Positions 7,020 through 54,456 of a stretch of DNA of 55,702 nt are shown one piece after another (the first letter of the stretch is position 1; each line of letters begins with the position of its first letter). The DNA comes from Mesotaenium endlicherianum. Lineage: Eukaryota. The position numbers and the translations under genes are program-made. The stretch covers positions 5,501 to 61,202 of the forward strand of contig WELA01001425.1 in assembly GCA_009602735.1 (NCBI GenBank), given 5' to 3'. The notes beneath the pieces were generated by a model. That model saw only the letters and a program-made list of their open reading frames with translations. It was not told the DNA's origin and searched no databases.

Positions 7020-7061
<42 letters not shown>

Positions 7062-15963: not shown

Positions 15964-16000
15964 GTGGTATCGGAGCTAGGCACTTTGGTAGCACAAGAAG

Positions 16001-21600: not shown

Positions 21601-21631
21601 CGAGACGTCGCTCTTTCTATTGGGGGGGTGA

Positions 21632-22134
21632 TGTAGTGATTTGAGTTATTATATATTAGTTTGCATATATTTTAATGTTTTCAAATATATTTGGAGTAGT
21701 ATTGTGTGGAGTCAAGTGTGAATAGGTACTCTAGTAACTTGGTTCATGTCCTTTGAACCTTCCAAGGCATTTTCGAAGTTAGAGGAAAGACCTAGAAGAA
21801 CTCCATGTGGCAAAAGTCAAATGTGCCATTTTTAGGTCAAAAGGACATGTGTACATTATTCTAGAAAGAGGTGGCAAGTTTTGGGATGTGTTGGGTGCCA
21901 ACACATCAACATACACCTTCCTAGAAATTACTTATGTAGCAAGTATATAAACAAGAGCTAGAACATAGAAAGACATTCCAGAATCACTCTTGTACTTGCC
22001 AAAATCCAGAAATATATTAACTTTCAAGAAGCCATCTCTCTTTCAAGAAGCTACCACTTGTGTTCAAAGATCCTTGTCTTGAATAGATAAACTATTCTGT
22101 TTTACTAAGTAATTTATCTACCTGTTTCACTACA
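21632..22134 (+). repeat. 3' LTR of A1
   Basis: Near-identical to 15461-15963; preceded by the PPT and followed by the TSD. Confidence 0.95.
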
Positions 22135-22406
22135 AATAGGCATAACTTCTTTGTACCTTATCAGTTTTCACTTCTCTAAATTTCTACAGGTTTGATATGA
22201 CAAGCCCTTCCATCCTACATCATTTGTGAGCAATTTCTTGCTAATCAAAATGTTGAGTTATTTTCCTAAGCTTTCTTAGTGATATGCCGCTGCACTCTTT
22301 AGTATGATTGCAACTAGTTCATTTCCTCGTGAGTCACTATGCTTCCACTAGGGCACTTTGCCCCTTTTATCTGGTATCAAAGCTGGGCTAGTTTGCATAT
22401 TGTATT

Positions 22407-23709
22407 ATGGAGTCGCAGCCGGCAGCTGGAGGAGGTGAACATGTCGAGCATGTTGAGCGCGCGGGGCAGCAGGCAGCACCAACGATGACCAGAGAGCAAC
22501 AAGAAATGCAGGCGATGCTAAGGCAAATGGCGAATGCAATTGGAGGAGAAGTCTACGCCCAATTTCAACAAAATATGCGCGCGGAGGTGGAGAGGATGGT
22601 GCGAGTTGTTGTTGGGAATGCCGCTTCGACGAGTTCGGCACCTGCACCCGTTGTACCACCAATTCATGTTAACCCAGTGGTGCAACCAGTTATTCCAACC
22701 GCATCGAGAGTGCGTGCGCCTAAGCCTGAAGTATATATTGGAGAGCGTGGATCGCCGCCTCTTTATCAATGGATTTTGGAGTGAAGAAGTTTATGGAGTA
22801 TTCCGCGCTCACACCCGACAAGCAAGTCGCCTTTGTCATAACTTTGCTGCAGAAGAGTGCTGAAGCTTGGTATGAACAAGAAGAGTAGCTGTTTGGAGTT
22901 CCTGCTACTGTTGATCAGCTATTTGAAGGCTTGAAGAGGCAATTTCAACCTATTGCACCCGAGGCTACTGCTCGAGATCTATTGGTGCGCCTTCGTCAAC
23001 GAGGAAGCATTCAGGAGTATGTTTTGCGCTTCAACGAGCTGGTGCTTCAAAGTCCATCCATGCATGAGTCAGAGATGATGGACAAGTTCAAGAGGGGGCT
23101 CAAGCCAACTGTGGCCAAGGAAGTGGCGCTCAAGGACCCTACCAGTCTTGGAGAAATGATGGCATTGGCAACAAGGGTTGACGTTGTGGAGTATAGCCAG
23201 AGGCAGTGGGGCAGCCACTACTTTGGAGGACATCGACACTTTGGATCTCAAGCGCCAAGCACGAGTGTTCAAGGTCCAGTGCCTATGGACTTGGGACTTG
23301 TTGAGTACCAGCGCAGGCAGCAGAATTTTAAGCTGAGGGGACCTTGCGATAATTGCGGCAAGCTTGGACATCTGGCTCAAGAGTGTCGTGTGAAGGCGAA
23401 ACAACATCAACAACAGGAAAAAGAAAGACGCCAGTAAGTTGTACTGGGGTGTCTACTTGCGTGAAGAAGGAAACTCACAAGGAGGTTATCTCCAGGAGCC
23501 TGCCGAGAAGCAAAGGACGAGATGTTGACAAGTCTATCATCGTGGAAGGAGTAGTCGACGGTAACAAGGCGAAGTGTATGGTCGACAGTGGCGCAAGTGC
23601 AAATTTTGTGCACAAGAAGCTGGTGAAAGAGTGGCGAATCCCTGTGCATAAGCATTATGAGCCTAAAGAGGCAGTTTTGGCAAATGGGCAGAGACTCAAG
23701 CGTGGTGCA
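22407..23709 (+). pseudogene. Element B gag (several premature stops/frameshifts) and N-terminal protease
   Basis: RAPKPEVY.G, ARDLLVRLRQRGSIQEYVLRF, GPVPMDLG, CDNCGKLGHLAQEC zinc knuckle; protease MVDSGASANFV in the -1 frame. Confidence 0.85.
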
Positions 23710-24533
23710 TGAAATGAATCGACTTACCAAATAGGCGATTAACAATTAATAAAGATCTTTATATCAGCAAGTAATCTTTATGGTATTTTTTGTTAATTGG
23801 TTAAACGGCAAAGGACAACACACTAGCAGTAAACAATACTTCGCGAGTCAAATGCAAGTAAACTAGCATCAGTAATGCAATTTGTAAACTCTTACATAAG
23901 CAAGGTTAGAAGACAGTGCGTATCAATGGCTTCTCGCCTTGGATTCAGATCTCTCTCAGTAAGCTGTACAAGAGAGTTGGCCTCGTTTCCAAATGCCGAA
24001 CTCGAGAGCAATGCCTAGCATATGTACATGGAATGAGTTTACTGTTCAACGGCCAGTGCGATGGCACCGTCTACCCGGGAGTTGGTAGGACCTCGGTTAA
24101 CCAAATCCACCGCCATCTCCCATCATCCCGAATCGCCATCCATCATAGAGATGTCATCTGGCCATTCATCTAGCATATCACACTTGTTTGCGTATCGAGG
24201 CAGTTCGCTGCTACCGAGTACGGAAGTCAGCTGGCTGTCAAAGAATGTGTCAGCAAGCTGACTTAAGTTGAATTCAGCCTGCTGCTTCCGGCTGAGTCAT
24301 TGAACTGATATTAAATATAAAGTCCAGCAGATTGATAATTAACTAGAGTTCAGTAGGCTGAAATTATTTAACTATTATATTTAAATGAATATTATATCTA
24401 CTAATATACTGGTTCATTACAATCCCTCCAACTTAACTTGTTGTCGCCTCGACAACATTAAACTGCAGAAGTTTTAAATAAGAGAACTGAACCTGACCAG
24501 CCTCCCCCACTGACTGCCTCTTCAGCCTGTCAC

Positions 24534-26211: not shown

Positions 26212-26469
26212 TCTGCACATGTAACCAGGGCACAAGTTAGTAGGATATCGACCTTTGTCATAGGAGTTGCAGGAAGGGAGTAAGTTCGTATCAGTATGGT
26301 ATATTCGTTCCTGTTTACCTTACAGGGTGATTGCTAGAAGTTGACGTAGTTGCGGTGCGCTAGACATAAACGTATGAATGTGTTTTCAGGTGTGTTTAAT
26401 GATGTATTGCTGTGCGAGGCCCTTTTTCCTTCAGCCAAACGTACTTTATGTGGGCCAGGCTGTCCTCTA

Positions 26470-26622
26470 TGTCACTATGCTGACACTTAGGATTCACATA
26501 ACCGTCCCATCTGTCACTATGATGGCACTTAGGGTTCACGTAACTGTCCCTTTCTTAGGATTCACATAACCGTCCCATCTGTTACTATGCTGACACTTAG
26601 GGTTCACATAACTGTCCCTTTC
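26470..26622. repeat. ~42-bp tandem repeat (3-4 units) between pol and the extra ORF of C1
   Basis: gtcactatg.tg.cacttagg.ttcac.taac.gtccc units; absent from the same position in C2. Confidence 0.8.
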
Positions 26623-26715
26623 TCGCTCTCGCACACTAACTGTCATATATTTTCCCCTCCAACTTAAATGGAGACAGGACCTCCTGTCACCTTCCCGTGT
26701 TTACTGAAATGATTG

Positions 26716-30700: not shown

Positions 30701-33700
30701 GCAAGTACGACGTTATCCTAGGGACGCCTTGGTTGACCAAGCACAACCCCCAAGTTGATTGGAGGGACGGTACTATCAAGATCAAGAATGACATTACTTC
30801 AAGAATCTGTATTTTGCGCGCAATCTAGAATATCCAGACCCAAGACATCAAGAAGCCGGCACACGAGATACTATTGTTTGCCCTCCAACTCAAGAGACTT
30901 GTGAGGAAGGGACACGAGCTTCTTTTGGCCTTGATCACGCCAAAAGACATTAAGAAAGACATCGAGAGTCAAGAAGACAGCCCCCTTCCCAAGGAGATAC
31001 AAGAAGTCTTAGAGGACTACAAAGAAGTATTCTCCCTGGAAGTGCCCAAGGGCCTACCCCCCAAGAGATTCGTAGACCACAAGATAGAGTTGGAGCCCGG
31101 AAGCAAGCCCATCTCTCGACCTACGTTCAAGATGTCATACACAGAGCTAGACGAAGTCAAGAAGCAAATTAAGGAGCTACTGGACTACGGCTTCATTCGT
31201 CCTAGCAAGTCGCCATTTGGAGCCCCGGTGCTATTTGTCAAGAAGAAGGACGTACTTTGAGGATGTGTGTGAACTATCGCGCCCTCAACAAGATCACCAT
31301 CAAGAATCAATACCCGCTGCCGCGCATGGATGAGCTAATGGATCGGCTGGTTGGAGCCAAGTACTTCACGAAGATTGACTTACGGAGCGGCTACCACCAG
31401 ATTCGCATCGCAGAACCGGACATAGAGAAGACGGCATTCAGGACAAGATATGGACATTTTGAGTTCATGGTCTTGCCATTTGGACTCACCAACGCGCCAG
31501 CAACTTTCATGACTATGNTAACACACCAGCAACTTTCATGACTATGATGAACACCATATTTCAGCCCCTGCTAGACAGATTTGTGGTGGTATTCATTGAC
31601 GACATTCTCATCTACAGCAAGACCCTTGAAGAGCATGGAAGACACGTGAGAGAAGTGCTCAAAATCCTGAAGCAAAACAAGCTGTTTGCAAAGGAGTCAA
31701 AGTGCGAGTTTGCCAAACAAGAAGTGGAGTTCCTAGGTCTCCACGTGACTGCTGATGGCATCAAGATGGACCCCAAGAAGACCACGGTGGTGGAGGAATG
31801 GCCAACCCCCACGACCAAGAAAGAACTCCAGTCATTCTTGGAATTTGCCAATTGGTACAGAAAAATTCATCCAAGACTTCTCGCACATAGCAGCCCCCCT
31901 GACAGATCTACTCAAGAAGGACAGGCTATACACAAGGACCGAAAAAGAGGAAGAGGCATTTCAAGAGTTAAAGCGAAGATTGACCACATCCCTGGTGCTC
32001 ACTCTCCCAAGTCCAAACCCAGATTGGCCCTTCCACGTCATCACCAATGCATCTTCCTATGCAATAGGAGCAATCCTGCTTCAAGACCAAGGCAAGGGAC
32101 TGCAGCCCATCGCCTACGAGTCAAGGAAGATAAATCCAGCCGAGCAAAATTATACAACTACGGAGCGAGAGGCGTTGGCGATTGTACATGCCTTGAAGGT
32201 TTGGCGCTGCTACGTTGAAAAACGCAAGGTGCTGGTCACTACGGACCACGAGGCGTTGAAGCACCTCCAACGCAGCCGTATCTCTCACGGAGACAAGCAA
32301 GATGGAGTGAATACTTGCAACAGTACAACATCACGATTTAGTACCAGCCCGGCAAGACAAACCCGGCTGACCCCCTCTCAAGACTGCAATTAAATGCAGT
32401 GATGACATTCCCGAGTACAGATCTGGAAGCTCGATTTTCTGCCGCCTATGATGCGGACCCTTATTTCGCAAATGGCGAGGCAGCCCTTGACCCACACAAG
32501 AAGCAAGAAGGAAACTATTGGGTGAGACAAGACACAAGATAGAGATGCGTGCCTAATAATCAAGAGCTACAACTCTTGTTACTTCGAGAAGCACACGACA
32601 ACCCACTTGGAGGTCACTTTGGAATATTAAAGACCACGGGCGTGCTCGCAAGGACTTACTGCTGGCCAGGAATGTCTAAGCAAGTCAAGGAGTACTACAG
32701 GAGCTGCGACACATGCCAAAGAATCAAACCATCATCACAAAAGGCAGGAGGACTTCTTCAACCACTACCAATCCCCAAGACACAGTGGACAGACATCTTC
32801 ATGGACCTCATCGTGGACTTGCAAGTGACACCACGCGGCTACAATCCAATATTGACAGTGGTGGACAGACTTACAAAGATGGCTCATTTCATCCCAACAA
32901 CGACCAAGGTTACAGCACCTTAGTTAGCAAGACTCATCTTTGACAATATTTTTCGATTACATGGCCTGCTATCAAGAACAGGGTCTGATCGCGACCCGAG
33001 ATTCACAAGCCATTTCTGGAAATATCTCTTCAAGAACTTGGGTACATCGCTGGATATGTCCACTACCTACCACCCACAATCGGATGGACAAACAGAGCGT
33101 ATGAATCGTACTCTCAAGACCTCTCTAAAGGCCAACGTGTCTACTCTGGAGCAAGACTGGGACATGTACTTGACCCCTTTGGAGTTTGCCTACAACAACA
33201 CGACGCAGACCTCTACCCAAGAGTCCCCTTTCTTCCTCAAGTAAGGCTTCCATCCGATCACGCCGCTGAGCTTTACGGCTGGCCATGATGAAGTACCTGC
33301 AGCGGCAAATTTTTTGGAGACATTAGAAGAAGCCCTTGCAGCAGCCACAAGAGCTCTACAACACGCGCAAGATGCTCAAGCAAAAATGGCAAATAGGCTA
33401 GAAGAGAAATTACATACAAAGTGGGCGACGCAGTGTTACTATCATCCAAGAACATTTCCCTTAACAACAGGCCTGCCGGCAGCAAGTTCTCTCCCAAGTA
33501 TTTGGGACCCTTCAAGATAATCCAGCAAGTCAACCCAGTTGCTTTCAAGCTAGAGCTTCCCCAGACTATGCACATCGACCCCGTGTTCCATGCTTCCCTC
33601 TTCAAGCCGTATGTGCAACCTGACAACAAGTTCCCAGGACGTGTGACAAGCACACCAGCCCCAACAATAGTGGATGATCATTTGGAGTACGAAGTGGAAG

Positions 33701-35245
33701 ACATAGTGGCTTTGAGAAATTTCAGGAGACAACCAGAATACTTGATCAAGTGGAAAGGATATCCAGATTCAGAGAATAGTTGGGTGGCGGCGCACTAACT
33801 TGACAAAGTTCAGAGAAAGCTGAAACGCTTCCATGCCACCAACCCCCATCTTGGACCAGCCCCAAGTCTCTCTACTAGAAGCCCGCAGACTTCAGGGAGG
33901 CAGCCTGCCATCATCAAGAAGCAGCAGAAGACCCCTTGGAGGCAGCCTGCAAGAACCACAAAGAGGAAAAAATGACATTAGACACTTTTCTCTTCTCGCA
34001 GTTTCTGGACAGAAAACTAAAACTTCTACAGGTGATAGATCTCTGCAAAACAAATTCTGAAAATTTACCTGGATGTAATCCATGAGTAGCCGGTCATTTA
34101 GAGTCCAAGTTTGCTCAATTTGGAGCACAGGTGAGAGAGATATGATGCTCTAAGTAGAAGGGAGTCAGGCTGCTGGCATTATTAGGGCAGAATATGCCTT
34201 CTGACATTGTGCCCTTCCTTGAATTTGGAATGCTCCGAAACTCAAAACTCTGGTAGAACATCTTACAGCGCCAATTTTGAGACTTAATTGCATAATTTGG
34301 AAAAGTTTAGGACTTATGATTTTCAGAAGTTTCTGCATAGATTTGGAGGAGTGCCTACCCTCTCAGCTCTCAACGACACTCCAGAAATTAGAATGCTCTC
34401 AAATTTGGTGACCCGGTAGAGTTCTCCGACGCAATCCGTCTGGCATTTGAATGTTTAGACTTGCAGCAGTTCTGTGGATGCTATGAATTCTTGAAGTTGT
34501 GGCAGATTATGGGCCAACTTGTACAATTTTCTTCATCATCAAGGAGTAGGCTAGCCAATAAGGTCACACCACCCACGACCTTGCCTAGTCTACCTCAAAT
34601 GTGCAGCGCCTGACTTGGCGCCTTTGACTACTCCTCTTCACATGTGTGGCATCTGACTTGAAGCTGTTGACTAGCCTGCTCCACATGTGTAAGACCTGAC
34701 TTGACGCGCCGAAACCTCGCTTTTTCTGTCGAGGGGGTGATGTAGTGATTCGAGTTATAGTATATTAGTTGGCATATATTTTAATGCTTTTGAATATATA
34801 TTTGGAGTAGTATTGTATGGATTCAAGTGTGAATAGATACTCTAGTGACTTGGTTCATGTCCTTTGAACCTTCTAAGGCATTTTCGAAGTTAGAGGAAGG
34901 ACCTAGAAGAACTCCATGTGGCAAAAGTCAAATGTGCCATTTTTAGGTCAAAAGGACATGTGTACATTATTCTAGAAAAAGGTGGCAAATTTTGGGATGT
35001 GTTGGGTGCCAACACATCAACATGCACCTTTCTAGAAATTACTCATGTAGCAAGTATATAAACATAAGCTAGAACATAGAAAGACATTCCAGAATCACTC
35101 TTGTACTTGCCAAATTCCAGAAATAAATAATTTTTCAAGAAGTCATCTCTCTTTCAAGAAGCGACCACTTGTGTTCAAAGATCCTTGTCTTGATTAAGTA
35201 AAGTATTCTATTTTACTAAGTACTTTATCTATCTGTTTCACTACA
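30696..35245 (+). mobile_element. 5'-truncated, degenerate family A copy A2 (mid-protease to 3' LTR 34741-35245)
   Basis: Collinear with A1 from position ~17609 onward, with many stops and frameshifts; PPT followed by a 505-bp LTR ending TCACTACA. Confidence 0.93.
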
Positions 35246-36258
35246 GACGAGCAAAAATTCAGAGCTTTGACCTTAGCCATCCCACCCGTTTAAAATGCAC
35301 ATTAGTCACTTGACAGCCCCAGACAAGCTAAGCCCCACTGGCACATTAAAGCAGCACTAAGCAGTGACAAAACATTAAATAGGCTGCTACAATCTCCTAG
35401 ACTGAAATAAATCGACTTACCAAATAGGCGATTAACAATTAACAAAGATCTTCATATCAGCAAGTAATCTTATGGTATTTCCGTTACATGTTAAACGGCA
35501 AAGGACAATACACTAGCAGTGAATAATACTCGTAAGTCAAATGCGAGTAAACTAGCATCAATGATGCAAATCAGTAAACTCATACATAAGCAAGGTTAGA
35601 AGACAGTGCGTATCAATGGCTTCTCGCCTTGGATTCAGAGTTCTCTCAGTAAGCTGTACAAGAGAGTTGGCCTCGTTTCCGAATGCCGAACTCGAGAGCA
35701 ATGCCTAGCATATGTACATGGAATGAGTTTACTGTTCAACGGTCAGTGCGATGGCACCGCCTACCCGGGAGTTAACCACGTTGGTAGGACCTCGGTTAAC
35801 CAAATCCACCGCCATCTCCCATCATCCCGAATAGCCATCCATCATGGGGATGTCATCTGGCCATTCATCTAGCAGGTGGTACTTAGATGCATATCAAGGC
35901 AGTTCGCTGCTATCGAGCACGGAAGTCAGCTGGCTGTCAAAGAATGTGTCAGCAAGCTGACTTACGTTGACCTCAGCCTGCTGCTTTTGGCCGAGTCATT
36001 AAACTGATAATTATGTAAAGTCCAGCAGACTGATTATTAACTAAAGTTCAGCAGACTGACTACTAACTAAAGTTCAGCAGGCTGAACTAAATTAACTATT
36101 ATATTTAAATGAATATTATATCTACTAATATACTGATTCATTACAATCCCTCCAACTTAACTTGTTGTCGCCTCGACAACATTAAACTGCAAAAGCTTTA
36201 AATAAAGAAACTGACCCTGACCAGCCTCCCTTACTGACTATCTTTTCAGCCTGTCACC

Positions 36259-37935
36259 TTAAGGGGTGGTTCCTGGGGCTTCAGGATCAGGGGACGGAGA
36301 TCTGGACCTAGATCTGGACAGCCCTCTAGGTCTGTCAGCTGGCCTTCTAAAGAACCGTGTTTGCTCTAAAGTTGGTCCTCGAGGAGACTGAAGGATGGTA
36401 GCCTGCTCTTCAACCACTTGGGTGTTGATGCCCACATAGACAGGCATTCCAGTAGGATGCTGAAATACATTGGCTAGAGGTACATGCCCCTGAGCGGAGG
36501 GGGAGGCCAGCATACCTCTGGCCCACTCGCGTGTCCCTCTTCTGGCACCCCTGTCCTCTGGGGATTTCTGTCTGTGTCTGCTGCCCAGTACCGTCAGATC
36601 AGCTTCTTCCCCTGCTTGGGCAGGTGGGCTGGGGGAGCGAGCGCGGGGTCCAGTTGTCGCCATAACGGGGATCACATTCCACACACCTGATCGTGGTTCT
36701 TTAAGAATCGCCCCTACCTGTCTTTTGGTATCCTGAGTACCTGCTGCTGATGCTTCTCCTCTGCCCTGTTCTTGTTCCTCAGCCTCCTCATCCTCCTCCT
36801 TGGAGAGAGTAGAAGTCTCGTCCACTAAGTCGTCCTGCTCCCTAGTAGACATGGAGTAGTCTACTGACCTCCCTTTCTTAGGGCGCGCTGGAGGTTGCTT
36901 GGCCTTCAGCCTACTGATATCTATCCGGCCTGCATTCTTTGCCCATTTGACAAAGGCATGCTTTCCCTTAGAGAAGTACTCTCTTCCCCTCCTCCTATGT
37001 TCCTTGGTCTCTGCATTCATATTGCTCAGGCATCCATTCAGCCTGGGGTCCCAAGGGGCAATGTGAGGTGGTAGGATGAGATAGCCGTCTAGGCCATAGT
37101 GGAAGTCATCCGGTTGGGCTCGGTCACACTCCTGCTTCTTATTTGTGACGGTCATCCACCTCCAGTCTGTTGGCTGCTGGTAGTACTGGGGTCCGTGCTC
37201 AGCCTTCCTCAGTTTACACGGGAACCAGTGGGGAGAGAACATCTGCTGTCCTGCTTCCCTGGCCAAGTACTCCCAGCTCCTTCTCTCAACTTCATTGTAA
37301 GCTGGCAGGAGTGTGAGGTAGAATACCGTATCCTTAAAGCTATCGGGCCGCATGCTCACCATCCGGATGAGTCTCTGATCTCCCACTATTCCCGGTATGG
37401 GGACCGGCTTGTCCTCTGAATCATCTGCGAGATACCGGGCCTGCTCTGCTGTATAGCCCACCATCTTAGCATAATCTTCGTAAAGGACCACGCCGGTGTG
37501 TGTCTCGATGTACCTGTCCAGTGCTGTAGCTCCTTCCTTCTGTAGCAGTGTTGTCTGTTCCAGCCTGTTGATCTCCTGGGCTGCCAGCAATGCTTCCTTC
37601 AGGTTATCGAAGTTTTGGCCACCCACCACAGTATACCTGTAAGTGGCCAAGCTCTTCTGTCTGTCCGCTTCAATCTTTTTTCTTTTCTCCTCTTCTGCCG
37701 CTGCCGCTTCTTCTTGCTGTTTCTTCTGTCTCTCCTCCTCAGCCTTCCTGAGGTTTTCCGCTTCCTGATCCTTCTTCCTCTGTGCCTCTTCTGCCGCCTC
37801 TTGTTGTTTGCGGACCCTTTCTTGTTCTCTCCTGGTGAGGGACGTCGCCGCCAGCTCCTTCTGGTATTGCTCCATTGTCCTCCTGGCTTCTTCTGCCTTG
37901 CGCTTTCTGTCCTCCTTTTGTGTGGTGGGCGCCAT
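36259..37935 (-). CDS. Extra ORF (eORF) of retrotransposon family C, 558 aa, unknown function: coiled-coil N-terminus, globular core, acidic/low-complexity C-terminus
   Basis: Long uninterrupted ORF in the element's sense orientation between pol and the PPT. The ATG directly follows a TACTAAC...TGCAG acceptor. A diverged homolog in C3 conserves YRYTV, MVGYT, IPGI, DSFKD, PTDWRWMT and LPPHIA.WDPRL. Confidence 0.85.
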   Translation of the reverse strand: MAPTTQKEDRKRKAEEARRTMEQYQKELAATSLTRREQERVRKQQEAAEEAQRKKDQEAENLRKAEEERQKKQQEEAAAAEEEKRKKIEADRQKSLATYRYTVVGGQNFDNLKEALLAAQEINRLEQTTLLQKEGATALDRYIETHTGVVLYEDYAKMVGYTAEQARYLADDSEDKPVPIPGIVGDQRLIRMVSMRPDSFKDTVFYLTLLPAYNEVERRSWEYLAREAGQQMFSPHWFPCKLRKAEHGPQYYQQPTDWRWMTVTNKKQECDRAQPDDFHYGLDGYLILPPHIAPWDPRLNGCLSNMNAETKEHRRRGREYFSKGKHAFVKWAKNAGRIDISRLKAKQPPARPKKGRSVDYSMSTREQDDLVDETSTLSKEEDEEAEEQEQGRGEASAAGTQDTKRQVGAILKEPRSGVWNVIPVMATTGPRARSPSPPAQAGEEADLTVLGSRHRQKSPEDRGARRGTREWARGMLASPSAQGHVPLANVFQHPTGMPVYVGINTQVVEEQATILQSPRGPTLEQTRFFRRPADRPRGLSRSRSRSPSPDPEAPGTTP

Positions 37936-38201
37936 CCTGCACATGTAACCAGGGCACAAGTTAGTAGGATATGGACCTTTGTCATAGGGATTGCAGGAAG
38001 TATGTTAGTATTCAGTATAGTGGCTTCGTTGCTGTTTACCTTACAGGATGATTGCTAAAAGTTGACGTAGTTGCGATGCGCTACACATGAACGTATGAGT
38101 GTGTTTTTTTGCTCTCGCTCACTAACTGTCATATATTTTCCCTTCCAACTTAAATGGAGACAGGACCGCCTGTCACCTGCCCGTGTCAACTGAAATGACA
38201 G

Positions 38202-41200
38202 TTATGGAGGGACTCCAGCGGCCCGAAGGTGGAACCGTGTCAACGCCCCTTTGGCATTGGTTAAGTGGTCCTTAAACTCCCAAGTGTCCCCAGAGGCATC
38301 GTAACCCTTCCATCGAATGAGGTATTTCATGACATATTTAGACGATCGACGGACCGAGCGAGCGTCTAAAATCTCATCGACCTCATATTCCTCAGGGTCG
38401 CCGTCCCGGACAGCGGGGACCGGTCCCGGTTGGACAGGGAACCGACCTGTGAACAGTGTATCACCTTTGATGTACGGTTCCAGGAAGGAGACATTAAAGA
38501 CCGGGTGCCCCTTGTATTCAGCTGACATGTTCAGTTTGTAAGCATTCTGACCGACACGACGGACCACCGAATATGGACCGACCCAGACAGGGCCAAGCTT
38601 TTTCTTGACCACACCAGGGAGGTACAGGTGCTGAGAATGCAGTTTGACTAAATCCCCCTTGGAAAATGTCAGTTCCCGACGGTGTTGATTAGCGTATTTT
38701 TGTTGGTTTTCTTGGGCCGTGTGCAAGTTCCGTTGGACTTCTGACAGGGTGTCAGCAAACTCCTGAGTTAACTGGAGGGAGACCGGGTTGTCAATCCCTT
38801 CGGGGTGAGTTAAGGATTCCCCTAGTGCATCTACAGGAGACTTAGGGACTCTACCCAGGCTTAGTTCAAAAGGAGTTTTGCCCGTTGACGCGTGCACCGC
38901 ACTGTTGACCGCAAACTGAATTTGAGGTAACAGGTCATCCCAATTATCTTGTTTCTGGTTAATACATGCTCTCAGCAACTCTTGCAGGACTCGGTTAGTT
39001 CTTTCAGTCTGCCCATCAGTCTGAGGGTGGTTTGCTGTGCTGAGCAGCTGTTTGACTCCCATTAACCCCATTAAAGCTCTCCAGAACTTAGAGGTGAATT
39101 TTGAGTCTCTGTCTGAGATGATATTAGAAGGGAGCCCATGTTGGCATACTACATGGTTGTAAAACTGTCTCGCTGTTTCGAGTGCAGTCACTTTGACAGT
39201 TGTGGGGATAAAAATGACCATTTTTGTTAGTTTATCCACGACTACCAGTATTGAATCATGCCCGTTGGCAGTTCTTGGTAGTGAGACCACCCAGTCCATG
39301 GATATAGTTTCCCAGCGTCCCGCGGGGATGGGTAGCGGTTGCAAGAGACCTCCGGGTGGTGTGTGCCGAGACTTATTTCTGAGACACTGGTCACAGGACT
39401 TGACATATTTCAAGACCTCCCGGGGTAACCCCTCCCAATGATAATGTTTTGCCAGTTTGCCAACAGTTTTGGCCTGCCCCAAATGTCCACCCAGGAGACT
39501 GTCATGAGCTTGACTCAGTAAGAGAGACCTTATTTCCAAATTATTAGGAATGACCAGCTTCAGCCTGCCTGAAGTGGTTTCAGTCACCCAGACCCCTCCC
39601 TTGAGCTTATACCCGAGTGCAGTAGCACGACACACACCAGTAGTGGGGCTGGGCTCAAATGTTGGGTCAGAAAGGTAGGCTTTCCTAAGTTGTTCAAGGA
39701 AGGACTTTTTCACCTTTAGTGAAGTGAGTGCACACAGGACTTTATCTACAGCATGCTGACTAAAGTTCCTTTCTTGCAAGTCAGGTCTTCTAGAGAGTGC
39801 ATCAGCAGGATTCAACTTCCCTGGTTTGTAGTCGATCTGGACTTGGAACTGCTCCAGCATCTGGCTCCAGCGGTTCTCCCTCCTCGACAGCTTGGACTTC
39901 TTCTGAAAGTGGGTCAGAGCTAGATGATCTGTAATCACCTTAAAAGCTTTACCATGTAAGTATGCTCTCCACTGTTTGAGTACATGAATGATAGCTAGCA
40001 GCTCTTTATCATGCACTGAGTAATTAATCTCCGCTGGATTAAATTTCATAGACTCATACAACACAGGATGCCACTCCTGCCGTACCTTACCATCCTTTGT
40101 GGTTTTGTCAGCAGGCTGCAACAAAATAGCACCCATGGCAAAATCAGAGGCATCAGTAACCACCTGCACCGGTTTGCTGGGGTCATACACGGCTAGCACT
40201 GGGGCAGAACAAAGGGCATCTTTAAGGGTCTGGAAGGCAGCCTGCTGCTCTTCCCCCCACACATACCCGATGTCTTTCTTAGTAAGGTCAGTCAGTTTAC
40301 TGGCCTTTGTGGAATAATTCTCAATAAATCTCCTATAGTAGTTAGCCAACCCGAGGAAGGATCTAACTTCAGAGACAGACTGTGGTACTGGCCAGTCCCT
40401 TATGGTCTGGACTTTCTTAGGATCCACACTGATGCCCTCTTTACTGACAACGTGGCCTAAGAATTCAATACTTTCCTTAAAGAAATCACACTTGCTCATT
40501 TTAGCATACAAGTGATTTTTCCGCAGAGTGTCCAGCACTTTCTTTAAGTGTTCAGTGTGCTGAGCTTCATCTTTAGAGAAAATTAAAATATCATCCAGGA
40601 AAACTTGCACAAACTTATCCAAATAAGGTCTGAAAATGTCATTCATAGCACCCATGAAGGTAGCAGGAGCATTAGTCAGTCCAAATGGCATCACGTTGAA
40701 CTCATAGTGTCCATAACGTGTGCGGAAGGCAGTCTTGTGTTCATCCCCCTCAGCAATTCTGATTTGATGATAACCACTCTTGAGATCTATCTTACTGAAC
40801 ACCTTAGCACCAGACAGGGTATCAAGCAAGTCCTCGATTCTGGGTAAAGCATACTTGTTCTTTACTGTAATTCTGTTCAGGGCTCTGTAATCCACACACA
40901 TCCGCATACTGCCATCCTTTTTCTTAACAAATAGGATGGGTGCGCCGTAAGGTGATTTACTGGGAGAAATATAACCATTTTCCTCAAGCTCTGCAATCTG
41001 TGTTTTCAACTCCTCGCTCTCCACATAAGACAAGCCATACGTGCGTTGCCAGGGTGGCTGACTCCCAGGTAATAAATCAATCCTATGATCTACTTCCCTC
41101 TTAGGGGGTAGTCCTGGAGGCATATTAAATACATCCGTGTACTGAGCAACAATTTTTGCAGCAGTAGGGTGCTCCGGAGGGCTTACCTTTTTCTCAACCA

Positions 41201-42011
41201 CTTCTTCAGGTTGAGGAGGTACCTCTCTTAGCAGCAGACAGAACATTCTGTCTTCCTTCTGGTTCCAGCTTTTGACGAACTCCATTGCATTCAGCAACTT
41301 GCATCCTTCTGGAAGCCTCTTCTTTTCCTTCATTTGCCATCCACACAGGACAAGAGGAAGAGCACTGGTGGGTGCCAAGTTAGTCTGCCCATCACTGGCT
41401 CCTCTCACTTTAACTGTACCTCTGCTCCAACACACTTCAGCTTGATGTCTATTAAGCCAGGACCTGCCTAGCACGAGATCATAGAACCCAGTGTTGAGTA
41501 CCTCAAATGTAAGCGTTTCAGTTAGAACTGCAATGCCAGAACCTAACTGGACCTCAATAGGCTTGGTTATAACTCCTCCCGGGATACTTGAGGCATCTCC
41601 AAGGACTATCTTTGTATTCCCTTGGGTGACAGTAGGCAGCCTTAGCCGCTTAACTAAGTCCTTGTGGATAAAGGTATGTGACGCCCCTCCGTCAACAAAT
41701 GCCCTCACCTTCCTACCTGCAATCATGCAATGCAGTAGGATAGGGGGGACTGTCCTTTCCTGACTTTCGCATTGTTCTCCTGACGTAGCAAAGAAATGTT
41801 GGACATCAGGTGGAACAAGAGCATCCAGAGTGTGCACTCTCTGGACGTCTATATTACTGATGGTCTCCTTTATCTGTTTGTCAGGCATGCATAGTATATC
41901 CAGTTCAGCAGGACCCATAATACCTGCTACGAGGGCAGCTAGTGACGACTCACTATCTCTAGCATCCTCACAGTCAGTAGACTGGATTACTGACTGTTGC
42001 TGTCTTTTAAA
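38202..42011 (-). CDS. pol: Pol of element C2 (PR-RT-RNaseH-IN-chromodomain)
   Basis: FVDGGASH protease, MPFGL/FLDD RT, TDAS, HHCC/DDE integrase, GPY, and an EYEVDEIL...[14 protein letters not shown] chromodomain; the frame is open from the slippery site at 42005-42011. Confidence 0.95.
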
Positions 42012-42947
42012 GGCTGGTCTTTTCTCTCGACCTTAGGCAGGTGCTTGACCGGACACTGTTCTCTGTAGTGGCCTGTCTGCTGACAATGGTATGCAAGTTC
42101 AAGGCCCACGATGGACTACTTGGAAATGCATCTACAACATAAGAATGGGGGTGAAAAGGAGGCTTTCAAGACTTACACTCCCACATAGGTATCTGTAATG
42201 AATCAGTATACTGGTCGATCTAATATTCATTTGAATAACATAGTCAAATAAGTTCAGCCTGCTGAACTCTACTTAACAATCAGTCTGCTGGACTTTATAC
42301 TTAATATCAGTTTAATGACTTGGCCGGAAGTAGCAGGCTGAGGTCACCTTAAGTCAGCTTGCTGACACATTCTTTGACAGCCAGCTGACTTTCGTACTCG
42401 GTAGCAGCGAACTGCCTCGATATGCATCTAAGTGTGGTATGCTAGATGAATGGCCAGATGACATCCCTATGATGGATGGCGATTCGGGATGATGGGAGAT
42501 GGCGGTGGATTTGGTTAACCGAGGTCCTACCAACGTGGTTAACTCCCGGGTAGGCGGTGCCATCGCACTGACCGTTGAACAGTAAACTCATTCCATGTAC
42601 ATATGCTAGGCATTGCTCTCGAGTTCGGCATTCGGAAACGAGGCCAACTCTCTTGTACAGCTTACTGAGAGAGATCTGAATCCAAGGCGAGAAGCCATTG
42701 ATACGCACTGTCTTCTAACCTTGCTTATGTATGAGTTTACTGATTTGCATTATTGATGCTAGTTTACTCGCATTTGACTTACGAGTATTATTCACTGCTA
42801 GTGTATTGTCCTTTGCCGTTTAACCAGTTAACGGAAATACCATAAAGATTACTTGCTGATATAAAGATCTTTATTAATTGTTAATCCCCTATTTGGTAAG
42901 GCGATTCATTTCAGTGGTATCGGAGCAGTTATCACAGTCTTCTTTGT

Positions 42948-44442
42948 ATGGTAAGGACAAGGTCTCAAACTAGCAACTCCCGAGACATGGAGAACCAGGA
43001 GAACGAGAATGTCGAAAACCAGGCGGAAAGCCATGTAGCGGGAAACCGTACCTATTCGGAAGCAATAGCAGATACTGCAGCTAGGGAGGCTGCAGAGGAG
43101 GCAGCTACTATTGCCTCAGTCGCAGCTCAGCAAGCTGAGGAGGAGAGAGCCTGGCTAGAAGCTGAACAAGTAGCAAAGGCCGCTGAAGATACAAAAAGGA
43201 GGGAAAGACAGTCAGCTGACGAGCACACTGTCGAGGAACTCATGGCATCAAGGGCCAATGTTCTGAACCCACCCCCTGCTGTACAACTCAATGTACCCCT
43301 AGGTCAAATACGTGACCGGCTGAATGCGGCAGGAATTGCTGCTGCAGGAGCGAGAGGGATTGTTGAGGACACTACTCAGCGAGTAGATGCCAATGCTGCT
43401 GCTGCATTTGCTACACTACCACCCCAGAGTGTAGACTTGGGAGCATTGTTTGTTCAAATGCAGTCGCAAATGGCGACCATGTATCAGTCCCAGCAGGAGG
43501 ACAAAAGAATCATAATGTCCCTACTGCAGGACAGAGACCAACTCGGGTCTCACACCACNCGGGTCTTACACCACTAGTGGTGGTGGCCGAGGGCCTAGTA
43601 AGCCCAAGCCGAAACCTCCCCAGGAACATCATCCTGAGGGGAACAGAAAATACTACCTGATCAAGTTTCTCGCGGATGTTGAGCAGTGGCTGGAGAATTA
43701 CCCAAAACTGCAAGATTACGAGAAGGTCAGGCACACCGGTGCGCTACTGAAAGGCAGTGCCGCAGACTGGTGGCTTTACTGGAAGGGAGAGCGTAAGGCT
43801 CGGCAACTCGGTGACCCTACGTGGGTAGAGTTTGTCGAGAAGTTGCATGAGAAATTTGACGTCATCAACCAGCAGGAGAAAGCTATCTATGCGATGATCT
43901 CCCTGACACTGAAGCAGACCACTTCAGTTGCTGAGTTTGCTCAAAAGTTCCAAGAGAACATGATGAAGCAGCCAGATTTGCCAGAACGGTATAGGATAGC
44001 ATACTTCAGGTATGGCTTGAAATCCGAGGTCTCTGGTCATTTTGCTGAGAAAAAGTATGAGAAACTGGCTGACTTGATCCAGGATGCTGACGCCTGGGAT
44101 CAGCAGCAGTTCAATCACAAGCGCCAGAGTAACGCTTTGGTGTCTAAGATTGTCAAAAAGCCCCACGGTTCCTACAATGCAGTTGAAGGAGACCAGGCTG
44201 AGGATAATCAGGGTGATGAATATGAGTATGAGTACAATGCTATTCAGTCAAGAGGTAGAGGTAGTTCCTCTCGAGGTGGCTATGGAAGGGGTGGTGGTAG
44301 GACTAAGCCGAGACCAGCCTCAGCAAAATCCACTTGCTACCATTGTCAGCAGGAAAGGCCACTACAGAGAACAGTGTCTAGTCAAGCACATGCCCAAGGT
44401 TGAGAGAAAGACCAGCCTTTAAAAGACAGCAACAGTCAGTAA
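42948..44442 (+). pseudogene. gag: C3 gag (frameshift in the zinc knuckle; another apparent break at an assembly N)
   Basis: MVRTRSQ start, LLKGSAADWW, KQTTSVAEF; the CYHC knuckle is disrupted by a 1-nt insertion relative to C2. Confidence 0.85.
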
Positions 44443-48227: not shown

Positions 48228-48547
48228 CAGTCGTTTCCGTTGACACGGGAAGGTGACAGGAGGTCCTGTCTCCATATAAGTTGGAGGGAGATGTGACAGT
48301 TAGTGACAGTTGTGACAGGCAGCCCACCTTTAAATTTAAGTTGGAGGGAGTGGTAGTCTCTGATCACCATATTACCCACTCAACCTGCGCTCACACTCAC
48401 TTGCTCTCCAAATTTTTCCTTATAGTCGCTCACACCAGGTATTCCACTCTAGGAACTCTCTCGATCGCGTCCCTCTTCATCAAGGACACTCAGTTGCGGC
48501 AAAATATCATGACTTCACTAACTGCATTGTGTTTATGATTGAGCAGG

Positions 48548-49649
48548 ATGACTCAAAAGTCGGAACTCAAGAGGAAGCGAAGGGCGGAAGAGGCACATGC
48601 AGAATACTTGCGATTCCGTGGAGACATCGAATCATCTTCCATCACCGCTCGGGAATCACAACGACTCCAACAACAGCGGGAGGCACAGAAGAAGAAGGAG
48701 GAGGAACAGGCCAGACTGAGGCAGGAAGAAATGGACAGAAAAGCTGCAAAGGAGGCTAAGAAAGCAGAGGAGGAGAGGCAAGCTGAGGAGAAGCGGAAGC
48801 AGCAGGCTGAAGAAGAAGAACAGAGGAGAATCAGCAGCTACCGCTACACAGTGCTGGGCAAGGGCTTTGATCTACTGGAGGAGGCCTTCAAGTATGCCCA
48901 GAGAAGTCGCAGTGAGTCGCAGAAGGAAATCCTCCAGAAGGAAGGGGAGACATCCGAAAATTTTGACAAGTATATAGAGGTCGGCACAGGGCTCCTCCTC
49001 TACCACGATTACGCCAGGATGGTAGGATATACCATCGGAGAGGCCAAGGCAATGGGCCAGGTGAACGAAGCAGGAGCAGTCTCGATTCCTGGAATCTGGG
49101 GGACAGATAGGGTCATCAGGATGATCCCCATGGACGCGGACAGCTTCAAGGACTCAACACCCCACAACAGGTTCAAGGCCATGTANNNNNNNNNNNNNNN
49201 NNNNNNNNNNNNNNNNNNNNNNNNNNNNNNNNNNNNNNNNNNNNNNNNNNNNNNNNNNNNNNNNNNNNNNTTGGTACCCTTGNTGTACCCTCAAAAAGAC
49301 AGACGCTGCCTTCTTCCAAAAGCCCACTGATTGGCGGTGGATGACCATCAACATGAGGGACCAGCAGAATGACAGGGCGACGGATGAGGATTTCCTGACA
49401 GACCTAAACGGGAACATAGTATTGCCCCCTCACATTGCGGCTTGGGACCCAAGATTGGATGGAGTCAGAGACTGCATGAGCCAAGAGATGCAGGGGGACA
49501 GAAGCAGGGCCCGAGAGTCATTCTCCAAAGGGAAGCACGCTTATGCCAAATGGGCAAGTAAGCAGGGGGAAAAGGACCTCTATGCGGTCCGGACTCAGCA
49601 GCCCCCACCAGCACCCAAAAGGGGAAGGTCAGTAGGATATTCTTTTTCT
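48548..49649 (+). CDS. Divergent allele of the family C extra ORF (3' end in an N-gap)
   Basis: MTQKSELKRKR...YRYTVLG...DYARMVGYT...IPGIWG...DSFKD...KPTDWRWMT...LPPHIAAWDPRLDG...FSKGKHAYAKWA...PKRGRSV aligns along its length with the C2 eORF. Confidence 0.8.
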
Positions 49650-50832
49650 NNNNNNNNNNNNNNNNNNNNNNNNNNNNNNNNNNNNNNNNNNNNNNNNNNN
49701 NNNNNNNNNNNNNNNNNNNNNNNNNNNNNNNNNNNNNNNNNNNNNNNNNNNNNNNNNNNNNNNNNNNNNNNNNNNNNNNNNNNNNNNNNNNNNNNNNNNN
49801 NNNNNNNNNNNNNNNNNNNNNNNNNNNNNNNNNNNNNNNNNNNNNNNNNNNNNNNNNNNNNNNNNNNNNNNNNNNNNNNNNNNNNNNNNNNNNNNNNNNN
49901 NNNNNNNNNNNNNNNNNNNNNNNNNNNNNNNNNNNNNNNNNNNNNNNNNNNNNNNNNNNNNNNNNNNNNNNNNNNNNNNNNNNNNNNNNNNNNNNNNNNN
50001 NNNNNNNNNNNNNNNNNNNNNNNNNNNNNNNNNNNNNNNNNNNNNNNNNNNNNNNNNNNNNNNNNNNNNNNNNNNNNNNNNNNNNNNNNNNNNNNNNNNN
50101 NNNNNNNNNNNNNNNNNNNNNNNNNNNNNNNNNNNNNNNNNNNNNNNNNNNNNNNNNNNNNNNNNNNNNNNNNNNNNNNNNNNNNNNNNNNNNNNNNNNN
50201 NNNNNNNNNNNNNNNNNNNNNNNNNNNNNNNNNNNNNNNNNNNNNNNNNNNNNNNNNNNNNNNNNNNNNNNNNNNNNNNNNNNNNNNNNNNNNNNNNNNN
50301 NNNNNNNNNNNNNNNNNNNNNNNNNNNNNNNNNNNNNNNNNNNNNNNNNNNNNNNNNNNNNNNNNNNNNNNNNNNNNNNNNNNNNNNNNNNNNNNNNNNN
50401 NNNNNNNNNNNNNNNNNNNNNNNNNNNATTTGGTTAACCGAGGTCCTACCAACGTGGTTAACTCCCGGGTAGGCGGTGCCATCGCACTGACCGTTGAACA
50501 GTAAACTCATTCCATGTACATACGCTAGACATTGCTCTCGAGTTCGGCATTCGAAGACGAGGCCAACTCTCTTGTACAGCTTACTGAGAGAGATCTGAAT
50601 CCAAGGCGAGAAGCCATTGATACGCACTGTCTTCTAACCTTGCTTATGTATGAGTTTACTGATTTGCATCATTGATGCTAGTTTACTCGCATTTGACTTA
50701 CGAGTATTATTCCCTGCTAGTGTATTGTCCTTTGTCGTTAAACCAGTTAACGGAAATACCATAAAGATTACTTGCTGATATAAAGATCTTTATTAATTGT
50801 TAATCGTCTATTTGGTAAGTCGATTCATTTCA

Positions 50833-51379
50833 GTATCTCTAGATGAAAGACAGCCTCTTGAGTGATGTATACCACCTTAACATTTTCACAAGGTGTAAGT
50901 AAATCTTGTTCCCGTGTGCTACAGCTGGGGCAGGTAGGCACATAGGCACCCAAATGATCGCTCAACGGTTTCTTGTGCTCCTCTATGAGTGTGTCAGAAT
51001 GAGCTGACATGAGCGGGCTGAAATCTATCGCTAAATCGGCAAGCTGAGTTCTCGCGCATGCCCAGTTGTCTTCTCTCTGCTCATTAACTCTCTCACCTCT
51101 ACTCTGGTCATTACCTCTCTGACTACAAGGAAGTACATAGCTAGCTGAGGAAAAGGAGGAGGCATTGACCTCGTCGAAGTGACCCTCATGTTGCATACTA
51201 TCAGATTGAAAATCACGAACATTTCTTTCCTCACTAGACTCCGCCACCCGCTTTCGAGATATTGTTTGAAATGAAGTGCTTGCTGGCTGAACTGAATGAG
51301 AACCAAAACCTTTGTACCAATTCCTAGATAACTTAACAAAAGGTAATTTATTAAACCCTTTTGAAAGCAGGCCCTCCAT
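50833..51379 (-). pseudogene. Cys-cluster (CxC-like) protein relic, possibly a KDZ/Zisupton-type transposase; continues at 42092-42193 across the C3 insertion
   Basis: With C3 removed at its TSD the frame reads CPSC...CENVKVVYITQEAVFHLEIPMWECKS*KPPFHPHSYVVDAFPSSP. The resemblance to KDZ-associated CxC domains is from memory only. Confidence 0.4.
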
Positions 51380-52355: not shown

Positions 52356-54456
52356 GTCGGGTTTAGTGTGCGAGTTTGGCTGGAATTAGCCATGATCGGC
52401 AGTCGCATCTCTGTCTCCATCTCCCCTTCACCCTCTCAGGGGTACTCGAGTCTTACCCCCCACACTCTGCGTGCTGTCACGCTTTCAGTAATGCTCAGGT
52501 TTGAAGCTTTAACACTGCTTCAATTTCAGGTCTTATATTGCAGCTACTAAATAATTAGCTAGCAAGTTCTACATGTACACGTGAGCGTGTGTAGATGAGC
52601 TGTCTGTCAGCACTCTACTCTATTTCCCACCAGTTGGCGCACACATAACGAACTCTTGCCCATTCATAACAAACTCCCATTTCTTCTATCACACACGTGC
52701 ACTCTTGGCCCAACCTGCCCGTCACACACACAAGCAGGGTGCAATAGTGCAATTGCAGACTCAAAGTACAGGGGGGGAGAGGTATTTGGTTGTTTTGGAG
52801 GGGAGGGAGGGGGTTGAGAGTGTGGATTACTTACTTGGAAAGAGCGAGGTATACTGAAGCAGCACACCATAGCTAGTCACTTGTCACCTTGCAGGAACAG
52901 GCATATAGAGACATCACATTAGCATGTGCACTAGCAGGCTGCCCCCCATATCGACATACCACCTATAGTAATTGCAAGTTACTCGTATCCAGCCCAATCA
53001 CTTGTGTTAAGAAGGGCATTGCACTCATTCCTGCAGTGCAGATAGTGTAGTGTGCAGGCAGCAAAGCTACGAAAGAAGGAGAATATCAAAAGGGAGTGGT
53101 GGAAACAAGGAGGAGAAGAAGTCAGGGATGGTAGAAGAGGATGTCGAGGGGAGGAAGGGAAGGTCCCCATACACCAGGCGTCTTCATATAACTACTACTC
53201 TCGCGAGGATGCCACAAACAACAACACACAACATATTGGACACAAATACAAACAGACGAAAATCACTCGTGCACTCGCTCAGGCACATGCGGGCAAAGAC
53301 GCGCACACACGGGATACACTCTCGGCCGCACACTGCAGTTAGCATGCAGGAATGCAAGCTGACACGAACGCCCAAAAATGAATGAAGACTGGCTCCCTGA
53401 GAACATAATTACTGCAACAAGTCAATGTGCACATACAGGTGTGCGCATGTAACGCATGCACATCTGAAAGCAAGAGAAGATTGAGGAGAGAGTAAGGCGA
53501 ACAGGCTTACATCTAAGGTGCAACATTATCAACTCCATTTATCCCTTGTCTAATACCCCTCTGATCCTAGAGCGAGCTCGCTGAGACGCTCGTTGTCCTT
53601 CAGCTTGTCTACACTACCATATCTACAATATAGCATGTAAATTATTAGGTGGTGATCATCATGTTCTGGCTACTAAGATCAAAACGGGAGGGAAGTTCTA
53701 GAGCGGATTACAAATGGCGGGTTTTAGACAATGTTTGGGCACACAATGCAGAATTTCTAGTCCCCTACACGTGGACAAATATTGTATGGCACACGTACGA
53801 ACAAACAAAACAAGACCTCGAAAGTCGTATGGAAGTACGTAACATGCGGTCAATGGCGGTTACGTACGCTTTCGTGGTCTGATCTGTAGGAATCTGGTCG
53901 CTGGGGCCTGGGCTTGGACCGAGTAGGGCCTACACCCAAAGGTGCCGTTTTTGGGGGTGGCAGGGCTTCAAAATGTGCCTACACATTTCACCAATTCTAT
54001 CCACCTGACGCTGGAATGCGCTGGAATGCAGCTGGAATGCGTCAGAGTTGGATAGAATTGGCTAGAATATATGAATTGTTAATAAACATAAATGCTGAAA
54101 AAAAACGGACGTTAACGGTGCAGTTTGCGCGGCAAGAAAGTCCACGAGACGCAGGCGGCCGTCTAATTAACGTGCCGGCGCCTGGGTGCGGCATATAATC
54201 AACGAAGTAAGGATTCGTGCGATACCAAATCAATGTCCAAACTGACAATTTGAGCTACGCTCAAATTGAGGTTTGAAAAGTAGTGAATATTTCACCAAAT
54301 ATTCACCAAATTCGAATGCATCAATCGAAGACACGGACAAGCAATTAACACGAGTAATTCCGAGAGCTAAGCCTAACCTACTTAAGTGAAGCCAGAAAAG
54401 GCTAAGCTCATGCAAGCGCAAATACAGTGCATAGTTGAGTTCTCACCCTCCCGTCC

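Follow-up and report, generated by a model that had tools for sequence, protein, structure and literature searches.

Extra sense-strand open reading frames (ORFs) in the 3' region of plant long terminal repeat (LTR) retrotransposons constitute a known class, termed aORF-3S or eORF-3'F (PMC7264820), and extra ORFs are frequent among plant Ty3 elements, with an origin, expression, and function that are described as mostly unknown (PMC7264820, PMC6317226). Among the chromoviruses, eORF-3'F was recorded in 18% and eORF-5'F in 33% of 782 Tekay elements, and in the same file no eORF is listed for Chlamyvir (44 elements) or Tcn1 (1500 elements) (Neumann et al., 2019; PMC6317226 Additional file 5). 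A product of comparable size, CERV of the Caenorhabditis elegans element Cer1 (517 aa), is spliced, nuclear, and needed for the export of genomic RNA (PMC10309623). Herein, we analyzed a 55,702-nt stretch of contig WELA01001425.1 from the zygnematophyte alga Mesotaenium endlicherianum (the window), in which three copies of one chromovirus family (family C; copies C1, C2, and C3) carry a third gene, hereafter ORF3. The host assignment agrees with the RPL22 gene of the window, the first exon of which (3812-4054) is 100% identical to a protein labelled jgi/Mesen1, the JGI label for M. endlicherianum; among the 120 matches listed for this exon, a second Mesen1 protein reaches 96% identity and the other 118 at most 85%. 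The initial annotation of this DNA had regarded extra ORFs as not standard for chromoviruses, which the Tekay figures contradict. With such ORFs on record for chromoviruses, only their presence in an algal lineage with a type-I chromodomain is novel. New here are the family to which the protein belongs, the lineage of the host, and a two-allele module bounded by polypurine tracts (PPTs). The ORF3 of C1 and C2 is referred to as allele a and that of C3 as allele b.

36259..37935, minus strand: ORF3 allele a of copy C2, intact, 558 aa, ATG at 37935, stop at 36259-36261
26211-24537, minus strand: ORF3 allele a of copy C1, with a frame change near codons 85-87 and three in-frame stops
48548 to at least 49649, plus strand: ORF3 allele b of copy C3, broken by assembly gaps, 3' part and C-terminus unreadable

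The observations supported ORF3 as a real accessory gene of the family C element that is under selection and is not an env. The coordinates initially given for the C2 frame stood, with the amendment that the gene lies on the minus strand, in the same sense as pol; it is placed after the pol chromodomain and before a PPT and the 3' LTR, and the probability of 558 stop-free codons arising by chance at its base composition was approximately 5e-11. A tBLASTn search of the window retrieved two further relatives only, those in C1 (88-98% identical to C2) and C3 (41-51% identical, about 50% in the core), in good agreement with the initial description of a third gene that follows the pol chromodomain in three copies and is intact in C2, disrupted in C1, and divergent in C3. 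The assembly gaps (N) of C3 are located at 49186-49270, 49283, and 49650-50427, and leave the intactness and the C-terminus of its ORF3 unreadable. Furthermore, one 1475-base contig of run X4 spans 36727-38198 at a depth of 28.9, as compared with 32-49 for the long pol contigs, and both of its listed indels (38013 and 38103) fall outside ORF3, which argues that allele a is common among the copies in that run.

Substitution rates at nonsynonymous (dN) and synonymous (dS) sites, obtained from Nei-Gojobori counts, revealed that ORF3 is under purifying selection. Over 550 codons, C2 and C1 gave a dN of 0.049 and a dS of 0.199, and the resulting dN/dS of 0.25 (bootstrap pN/pS, 0.20-0.38), reached despite the later decay of C1, was composed of regional values of 0.07 (aa 1-94), 0.21 (aa 95-363), and 0.38 (aa 364-558). 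For the core, 233 codons compared between C2 and C3 (50.6% identity) yielded a dN of 0.41, a dS of about 2.4, and a pN/pS of 0.36-0.52, the ratio of about 0.17 being rough because dS is near saturation (pS 0.72). The corresponding values for pol were 0.18 (C2 versus C3) and 0.22-0.52 (pieces of C1). The initial annotation had named a dN/dS near 1 together with a lack of expression as what would speak against such a gene; both ratios were well below 1, whereas no ORF3 reads were found in three polyA runs, as described below. The composition of ORF3 matches that of gag and pol (A-rich, CpG observed/expected ratio of 0.4-0.5) and differs from that of the host RPL22 exon (0.77), and ORF3 has thus probably long been resident in the element.

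The anatomy of the protein, as read from its sequence, comprises a charged helix (aa 1-94), a conserved core made of aa 95-235 and the basic aa 236-363 (net +12), an acidic stretch (aa 364-395, net -11), and a basic tail (aa 396-558, net +9) that is P/S/R-rich as well as RS/SP-rich. Two features assigned initially were not retained: the acidic part is internal rather than the tail, and the supposed coiled coil is an E/K/R/Q-rich helix (66% of residues, with 24 i,i+4 charge pairs) in which a hydrophobic a/d heptad is nearly absent (no more than 12% excluding Ala in C2), and which we take to resemble a charged single alpha-helix more than a coiled coil. The core motifs PTDWRWMT and LPPHIAPWDPRL pointed out earlier, along with PKKGR, are indeed present in C2 and conserved in C3, and alleles a and b also share the sequence YxDYAxMVGYTxxxA. 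The natural variation between these alleles, which are 50% apart, marks the essential residues of ORF3. The basic clusters resembling nuclear localization signals (NLSs), also noted at the outset, are kept in both alleles at aa 10-13 (RKRK/KRKRR) and aa 352-356 (PKKGR/PKRGR), and a nuclear role is therefore plausible from the sequence. The protein holds only three Cys residues, and its best 19-residue Kyte-Doolittle mean was 0.73; by hydropathy, neither allele a nor the readable part of allele b has a hydrophobic 19-mer above 0.75 or a hydrophobic N-terminus. Because no hydrophobic segment is present, ORF3 is by this measure not an env; the initial annotation had regarded it as not a typical one.

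In profile and protein searches, neither host genes nor described accessory families of transposable elements (TEs) were matched, consistent with the earlier remark that the family could not be recognized. Pfam gave no family at E 0.1 for the whole protein and, for five core pieces at E 10, none of PF03078, PF10536, and PF04195; phmmer with aa 91-360 found no match among 1.84 billion protein representatives, and a word-index search with the full protein in one length class confirmed none of 7993 candidates at E 0.001. Likewise, no relative was confirmed among 79 and among 5 pattern matches in metagenome and viral contigs, a phage tblastn search gave seven records, all at E 1 or worse, and the best ESM Atlas scores (0.83 and 0.84) lay within the range of shuffled proteins. 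At loose cut-offs, Pfam, PHROGs, and NCBIfam produced sub-threshold rows only, the best of which, Obc1_C (E 0.002, 17.4 bits against a cut-off of 27), is absent in allele b and was discarded. A PDB search returned thymidylate kinase rows at E 0.03-0.09; this candidate was also rejected, as ORF3 has no P-loop, the hhalign probability against seven aligned kinases (an eighth, with a stop, was left out) was 0.2%, and 192 of 500 shuffles scored as high. AlphaFold2 models built on alignments of 5 and 3 rows reached a mean pLDDT (predicted local distance difference test score) of 35 and 44, too poor to interpret, and fold searches with the pLDDT-44 model gave nothing significant and are uninformative on the fold of ORF3 (best match, an unrelated protein: Z 4.1, root-mean-square deviation 3.3, 67 residues aligned). 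By these searches, ORF3 is an orphan family with no detectable relatives in Pfam, PDB, and the 1.84 billion representatives, one which adds to the algal sister group of land plants. A literature search that leaves out Steinbauerova et al. (2011), the per-element table and sequences of PMC6317226, where algal elements bearing an ORF on their 3' side might be listed, and subscription papers found no described element family matching the ORF3 chromovirus, nor "Zygnematophyceae" together with "chromovirus"; further related work is given in PMC9289625, PMC11728184, PMC2774666, PMC3350952, bioRxiv 2022.06.16.496473, PMC13547354, and PMC11963269.

The element that harbors ORF3 is delimited by the following features.

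38202..42032, minus strand: pol of C2 (protease, reverse transcriptase, RNase H, integrase, and chromodomain, from Pfam), stop-free, 1276 codons from stop to stop
35403..36145, minus strand: 3' LTR of C2
36148..36160, minus strand: true PPT of C2, before the 3' LTR
38141..38153, minus strand: internal PPT copy of C2, just after the pol stop
24424..24436, minus strand: true PPT of C1, before the 3' LTR (about 23710-24421)
26655..26667, minus strand: internal PPT copy of C1
42194..50832, plus strand: copy C3, full length, with the 5-bp target site duplication (TSD) GTATC at 42189-42193 and 50833-50837
42915..42926, plus strand: primer binding site (PBS) of C3
48277..48348, plus strand: pol/ORF3 junction of C3, duplicated, with two copies of the PPT spaced by about 58 bases

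C3 is the only full-length copy of the family and has the structure of a chromovirus (TG..CA LTRs identical at 395 of 407 assembled columns, PBS, PPT, and 5-bp TSD); its PBS is presumably of the tRNA-Met type. C2 is truncated at its 5' side at about 42098 and has no 5' LTR and little of gag. The chromodomain of C2 lies at the integrase C-terminus (PF00385, aa 1215-1267, 34.4 bits against a cut-off of 25.1) and keeps the three cage aromatics in EYEV, IRW, and KGY, the cage being defined according to PMC3350952; chromodomains with all three are described as restricted to non-seed plants (PMC6317226). The best identities of the family C pol were 37-56% among the 120 matches listed, with no close relative there, and in a tree of reverse transcriptase and RNase H with 27 rows (25 of those 120 matches and two pols of the window, without clade-labelled references) the C2 pol formed a long branch outside the eight named seed-plant matches (100/100). 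C1 and C2 each contain the PPT sequence twice, first behind the pol stop and again ahead of the LTR. In C3 a pair of copies follows the pol stop, and the position of the 3' PPT is hidden by an assembly gap. Five exact matches were counted in the window against 0.02 expected, the first C3 copy being one base off. Hairpins near the PPTs, with z values of -2.2 ahead of the true PPT and of -1.3 and -1.0 for the internal copies, were not used. In C1 only, an insertion of about 233 bases (about 26386-26623) with 42- and 68-bp tandem units lies between the internal PPT and the ORF3 leader.

ORF3 thus belongs with the aORF-3S / eORF-3'F class by its sense orientation, its position between pol and the 3' LTR, its length (at least 250 codons), its lack of a conserved domain, and its retention across copies, being present in all three seen. 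Splicing is reported for such an ORF in barley Bagy2 (PMC7264820), whereas that of ORF3 is only predicted. Its element differs from the class by its zygnematophyte host, its chromodomain with an aromatic cage, and a pol outside the eight named seed-plant matches, and ORF3 itself by the absence of a transmembrane segment, the two flanking PPT copies, and two deep alleles.

Comparison of C2 with C3 revealed a sharp disparity between ORF3 and the rest of the element. Gag-pol was 97.4% identical over 3981 bases and the LTRs 94%; pol showed a dS of 0.057 and proteins 97.7% identical, as against a dS of about 2.4 for ORF3. The DNA homology stops about 25 bases past the internal PPT copy, and in C3 the stretch in front of the first PPT copy recurs, in diverged form, in front of the second. 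The simplest reading of C3 is likely a recent template switch from the family C pol to an ORF3 module belonging to a distant sister family, at a short shared sequence; the donor family of allele b is absent from the window. Run X4 contains a 246-base loose end that departs from C2 at 36185, some 25 bases ahead of the true PPT; this would agree with a matching 3' boundary and could also represent an ORF3-less variant. The 3' boundary of allele b itself lies in an assembly gap, which weighs against such a swap. It would be improbable that C3 is instead an assembly chimera of two families: the gaps at 49186-49270 and 49650-50427 leave room for one and the junction is known from the assembly alone, but the sequence from pol to codon 212 of allele b is free of N, both LTRs of C3 are bounded by one 5-bp TSD, a diverged duplication at the junction is not expected from an assembler, and the loose end in run X4 indicates that a second 3' internal sequence exists.

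The C3 junction would record how extra genes move between families. A PPT-bounded swap, if true genome-wide, would account for the frequent lack of relationship among the extra ORFs of a single lineage. A pool of third ORFs in LTR retrotransposons of bdelloid rotifers is similar in that they are separate units, produced from spliced messages and exchanged between retroelement types (PMC5408684); they differ in that they encode DEDDy, GDSL, coiled-coil, or env-like proteins in elements without a chromodomain, whereas the algal ORF3 is one orphan family with two alleles.

Sequences upstream of the ORF3 start codon suggested that its message is spliced. Neither this acceptor nor the PPT-bounded swap had been mentioned in the initial annotation.

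37933..37964, minus strand: predicted branch-point-like CTAAC and 3' splice acceptor of C2, with the AG ending at 37937, one base before the ORF3 ATG
48518..48550, plus strand: predicted branch point and splice acceptor of C3, before the ORF3 ATG
35421/35420, minus strand: candidate splice donor G/GTAAGT (slash, splice site) near the end of the C2 3' LTR

In all three copies, an AG acceptor stands one base ahead of the ORF3 ATG with CTAAC upstream. The strict pattern CTAAC-N15-30-GCAG-N-ATG matched three sites in the window, all at ORF3 starts, against 0.14 expected, and none of 100 shuffles reached three. The main argument for splicing is that the acceptor is kept in C2 and C3 although their leaders otherwise do not align (324 of 500 shuffles scored as high). 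The intron of the host RPL22 gene ends with the same eight bases as the C2 acceptor, ATGTGCAG. Moreover, about 265-320 bases separate the ORF3 ATG from the pol stop, and the leader holds four upstream ATGs in C2 and three in C3, which argues against read-through. ORF3 is thus likely translated from a spliced RNA, as predicted from these signals. G/GTAAGT occurs near the end of all three 3' LTRs, and sites resembling a local donor are present 103 and 108 bases upstream of the acceptor; by eye, both leaders also contain a candidate microexon of 13-15 bases (AG..GT, followed by 103-108 bases to the acceptor).

Several observations weigh against the splicing model. Only two cases of the acceptor are independent, since C1 and C2 are close relatives; the strict pattern was chosen after the sequences were seen; and a looser pattern matched 7 of 1833 ATGs, comprising the three ORF3 starts and four elsewhere. 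The donor motif GGTAAGT occurs at chance level (5 seen, 4.97 expected), and in the only 5' LTR present the donor reads G/GTAAGG. In three polyA runs carrying the same species label, with 6-12% of each run sampled (177, 268, and 164 reads on a 6851-base stretch) and a cut-off that restricts the result to allele a, all eight bins of 36216-38047 had a depth of 0, and no joint to the acceptor was found. The LTR and pol bins showed low depth, mostly from reads 90-95% alike that derive from other copies. Family C hence looks largely silent in these samples, so that the missing ORF3 reads neither show nor exclude splicing. RNA reads at 38277-38734 and 39955-40115, over the 3' end of pol, come from diverged copies with the first mate on the minus strand and are probably antisense to pol; one GT..AG joint (three reads, diverged copies) lies on the plus strand in the same region.

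As the best explanation of these data, we tentatively propose that ORF3 is a selected third gene between two PPTs, expressed from a spliced RNA, swapped as a cassette, and encoding a nuclear protein that may bind the element's own RNA for export of the genomic RNA. Splicing would use either the donor-like G/GTAAG of the LTR end or a local donor that precedes the acceptor by 103-108 bases, and the swap would occur by template switching during reverse transcription at short homology in the PPT region, leaving the duplicated junction of C3; these two steps appear rather probable. The conserved basic clusters would bring the protein to the nucleus, where, by analogy with CERV of Cer1, it might bind the element's RNA and keep and export the unspliced genome. 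Splicing pol out to make ORF3 would leave an intron-containing genome that resembles unspliced pre-mRNA and hence needs an export route, and the CERV-like reading was placed first because the basic core, the conserved NLS-like clusters, and the RS/SP tail fit it. This RNA-side job is the weakest step of the explanation.

ORF3 resembles CERV as a large non-env product (558 versus 517 aa) of the 3' region with a helical N-terminal part, a K/R NLS candidate, and no relatives outside its lineage, CERV being spliced and ORF3 predicted to be so. In contrast, CERV and gag have their N-terminal exons in common and CERV contains a Cys loop (PMC10309623), while ORF3 has its own ATG and three Cys residues. 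Global searches, made without a pairwise comparison, gave no sequence relationship between the two, and export by ORF3 would be an analogy only. Against an export role further stand the absence of a sequence or structural link to Rev or to any RNA-binding family in the same searches, with folds too poor to interpret; an HTH-like (helix-turn-helix-like) stretch at about aa 151-172 that suits DNA binding better; and a full-length family A chromovirus in the window (15461-22134, plus strand; TSD AATAG, LTRs 98.6% identical, intact gag and pol) that has no third ORF and is a natural ORF3-less control, so that not all elements of this kind require the gene. If ORF3 governs RNA export, it would form a plant-lineage parallel to Rev and CERV. 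A broader version, in which the element has independently arrived at a complex-retrovirus design, with a spliced Rev/CERV-like regulator of a new family in a module between two functional PPTs and with alleles traded wholesale between families at reverse transcription while gag-pol and the LTRs are kept, would be rather speculative.

A DNA- or chromatin-binding factor that counteracts silencing or trans-activates its own LTR or leader, like VANC of the VANDAL transposons, would be a possible alternative that comes close behind the CERV-like reading, because the HTH-like motif is conserved in both alleles. A helix-turn-helix is characterized by an Ala at position 5 and a Gly at position 9, and YxDYAxMVGYTxxxA fits this spacing. 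In the poor structural model, helices were placed at positions 60-66 and 71-80 of the domain, one of the two best-scoring stretches (pLDDT 53-59). The best profile match pointing this way, the anti-repressor phrog_63 (E 0.084), was non-significant, and several HTH or repressor names among 50 listed Foldseek rows for the pLDDT-44 model (all E >0.5) lean the same way. A CpG ratio of about 0.4, like that of pol, would fit a methylated element, and TE accessory proteins of the anti-silencing kind are described in plants (PMC13547354). However, no family, profile, or fold match was significant, ORF3 shows strong purifying selection and not fast change, and the leader tandem repeat is confined to C1.

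Less probably, ORF3 would act as a particle or integration cofactor that joins Gag or integrase, aids nuclear import of the pre-integration complex, or steers targeting together with the chromodomain. The long charged helix and the basic clusters would suit a tether or spacer, and such roles have been proposed for plant aORFs (PMC7264820; PMC11728184), but alleles 50% identical sit on pols 97.7% identical, and a tight integrase partner would be expected to track pol more closely. Other accessory genes, namely Grande GENE23, the Tekay 5' aORF, Retand Transposase_28, the Ogre plant mobile domain, and Athila ORF1, have a nuclear localization or NLS, comparable to the NLS-like clusters of ORF3, and long disordered or helical parts; those of Grande, Retand, and Tekay differ in position or strand, and ORF3 has no Pfam match to the families of Athila ORF1, the plant mobile domain, and Transposase_28 (PF03078, PF10536, and PF04195).

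It is quite improbable that ORF3 is a passenger, i.e., a gene captured from a host or a virus, or a fragment of another mobile element, with no role in the element cycle. The silence of ORF3 in the polyA runs, its absence from family A, and the PPT copy that directly succeeds pol, which in C3 stands before a TG and resembles the old end of an ORF3-less element, would agree with this view; conversely, the dN/dS of 0.25 between C1 and C2, which diverged within the family, equals the pol values (0.18-0.52), the composition and CpG depletion match gag and pol and not the RPL22 exon, and no host or viral relative was found among the representatives or in viral or metagenome contigs. An env-like or fusogenic protein for cell-to-cell spread, which would account for the position, the sense, and a predicted acceptor as in env messages, is largely refuted and highly improbable given the hydropathy of allele a and of the readable part of allele b, and the three Cys residues.

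Other observations in the window concern the family C coding region and its neighbors. At the gag/pol overlap, all three copies have CCT TTA AAA (42016, minus; 29552, minus; 44413, plus), in which the T-TTA-AAA heptamer is in phase for a -1 ribosomal frameshift and the gag stop follows eight codons on. The family C gag starts with an extension of about 200 aa (42939-43556, plus) containing an E/A-rich helix before the capsid domain, with no Pfam match. The family A chromovirus carries a 43-bp tandem repeat before its PPT. Two junctions are head-to-head: at 30701, C1 (minus), truncated on its 5' side, meets a family A copy (30701-35245, plus) that is also 5'-truncated, and at 42098-42194 the 5'-truncated C2 comes within about 95 bases of the 5' LTR of C3. 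Both would reflect deletions or rearrangements within a cluster of retrotransposons. A further PBS-like site and a gag fragment (22372-23437, plus), situated between family A and C1, represent a remnant of another Ty3 element, and a 369-codon ORF at 54439-55548 (plus), gag-like with a CCHC zinc knuckle and a Q/N/P-rich tail but without a capsid match, is perhaps the start of another retroelement. The host genes comprise RPL22 (3812-5503, plus; one intron, first exon 3812-4054) and an intron-rich gene at 6711-11705 (minus), the exons of which we take to resemble an SPFH/HIR protein.

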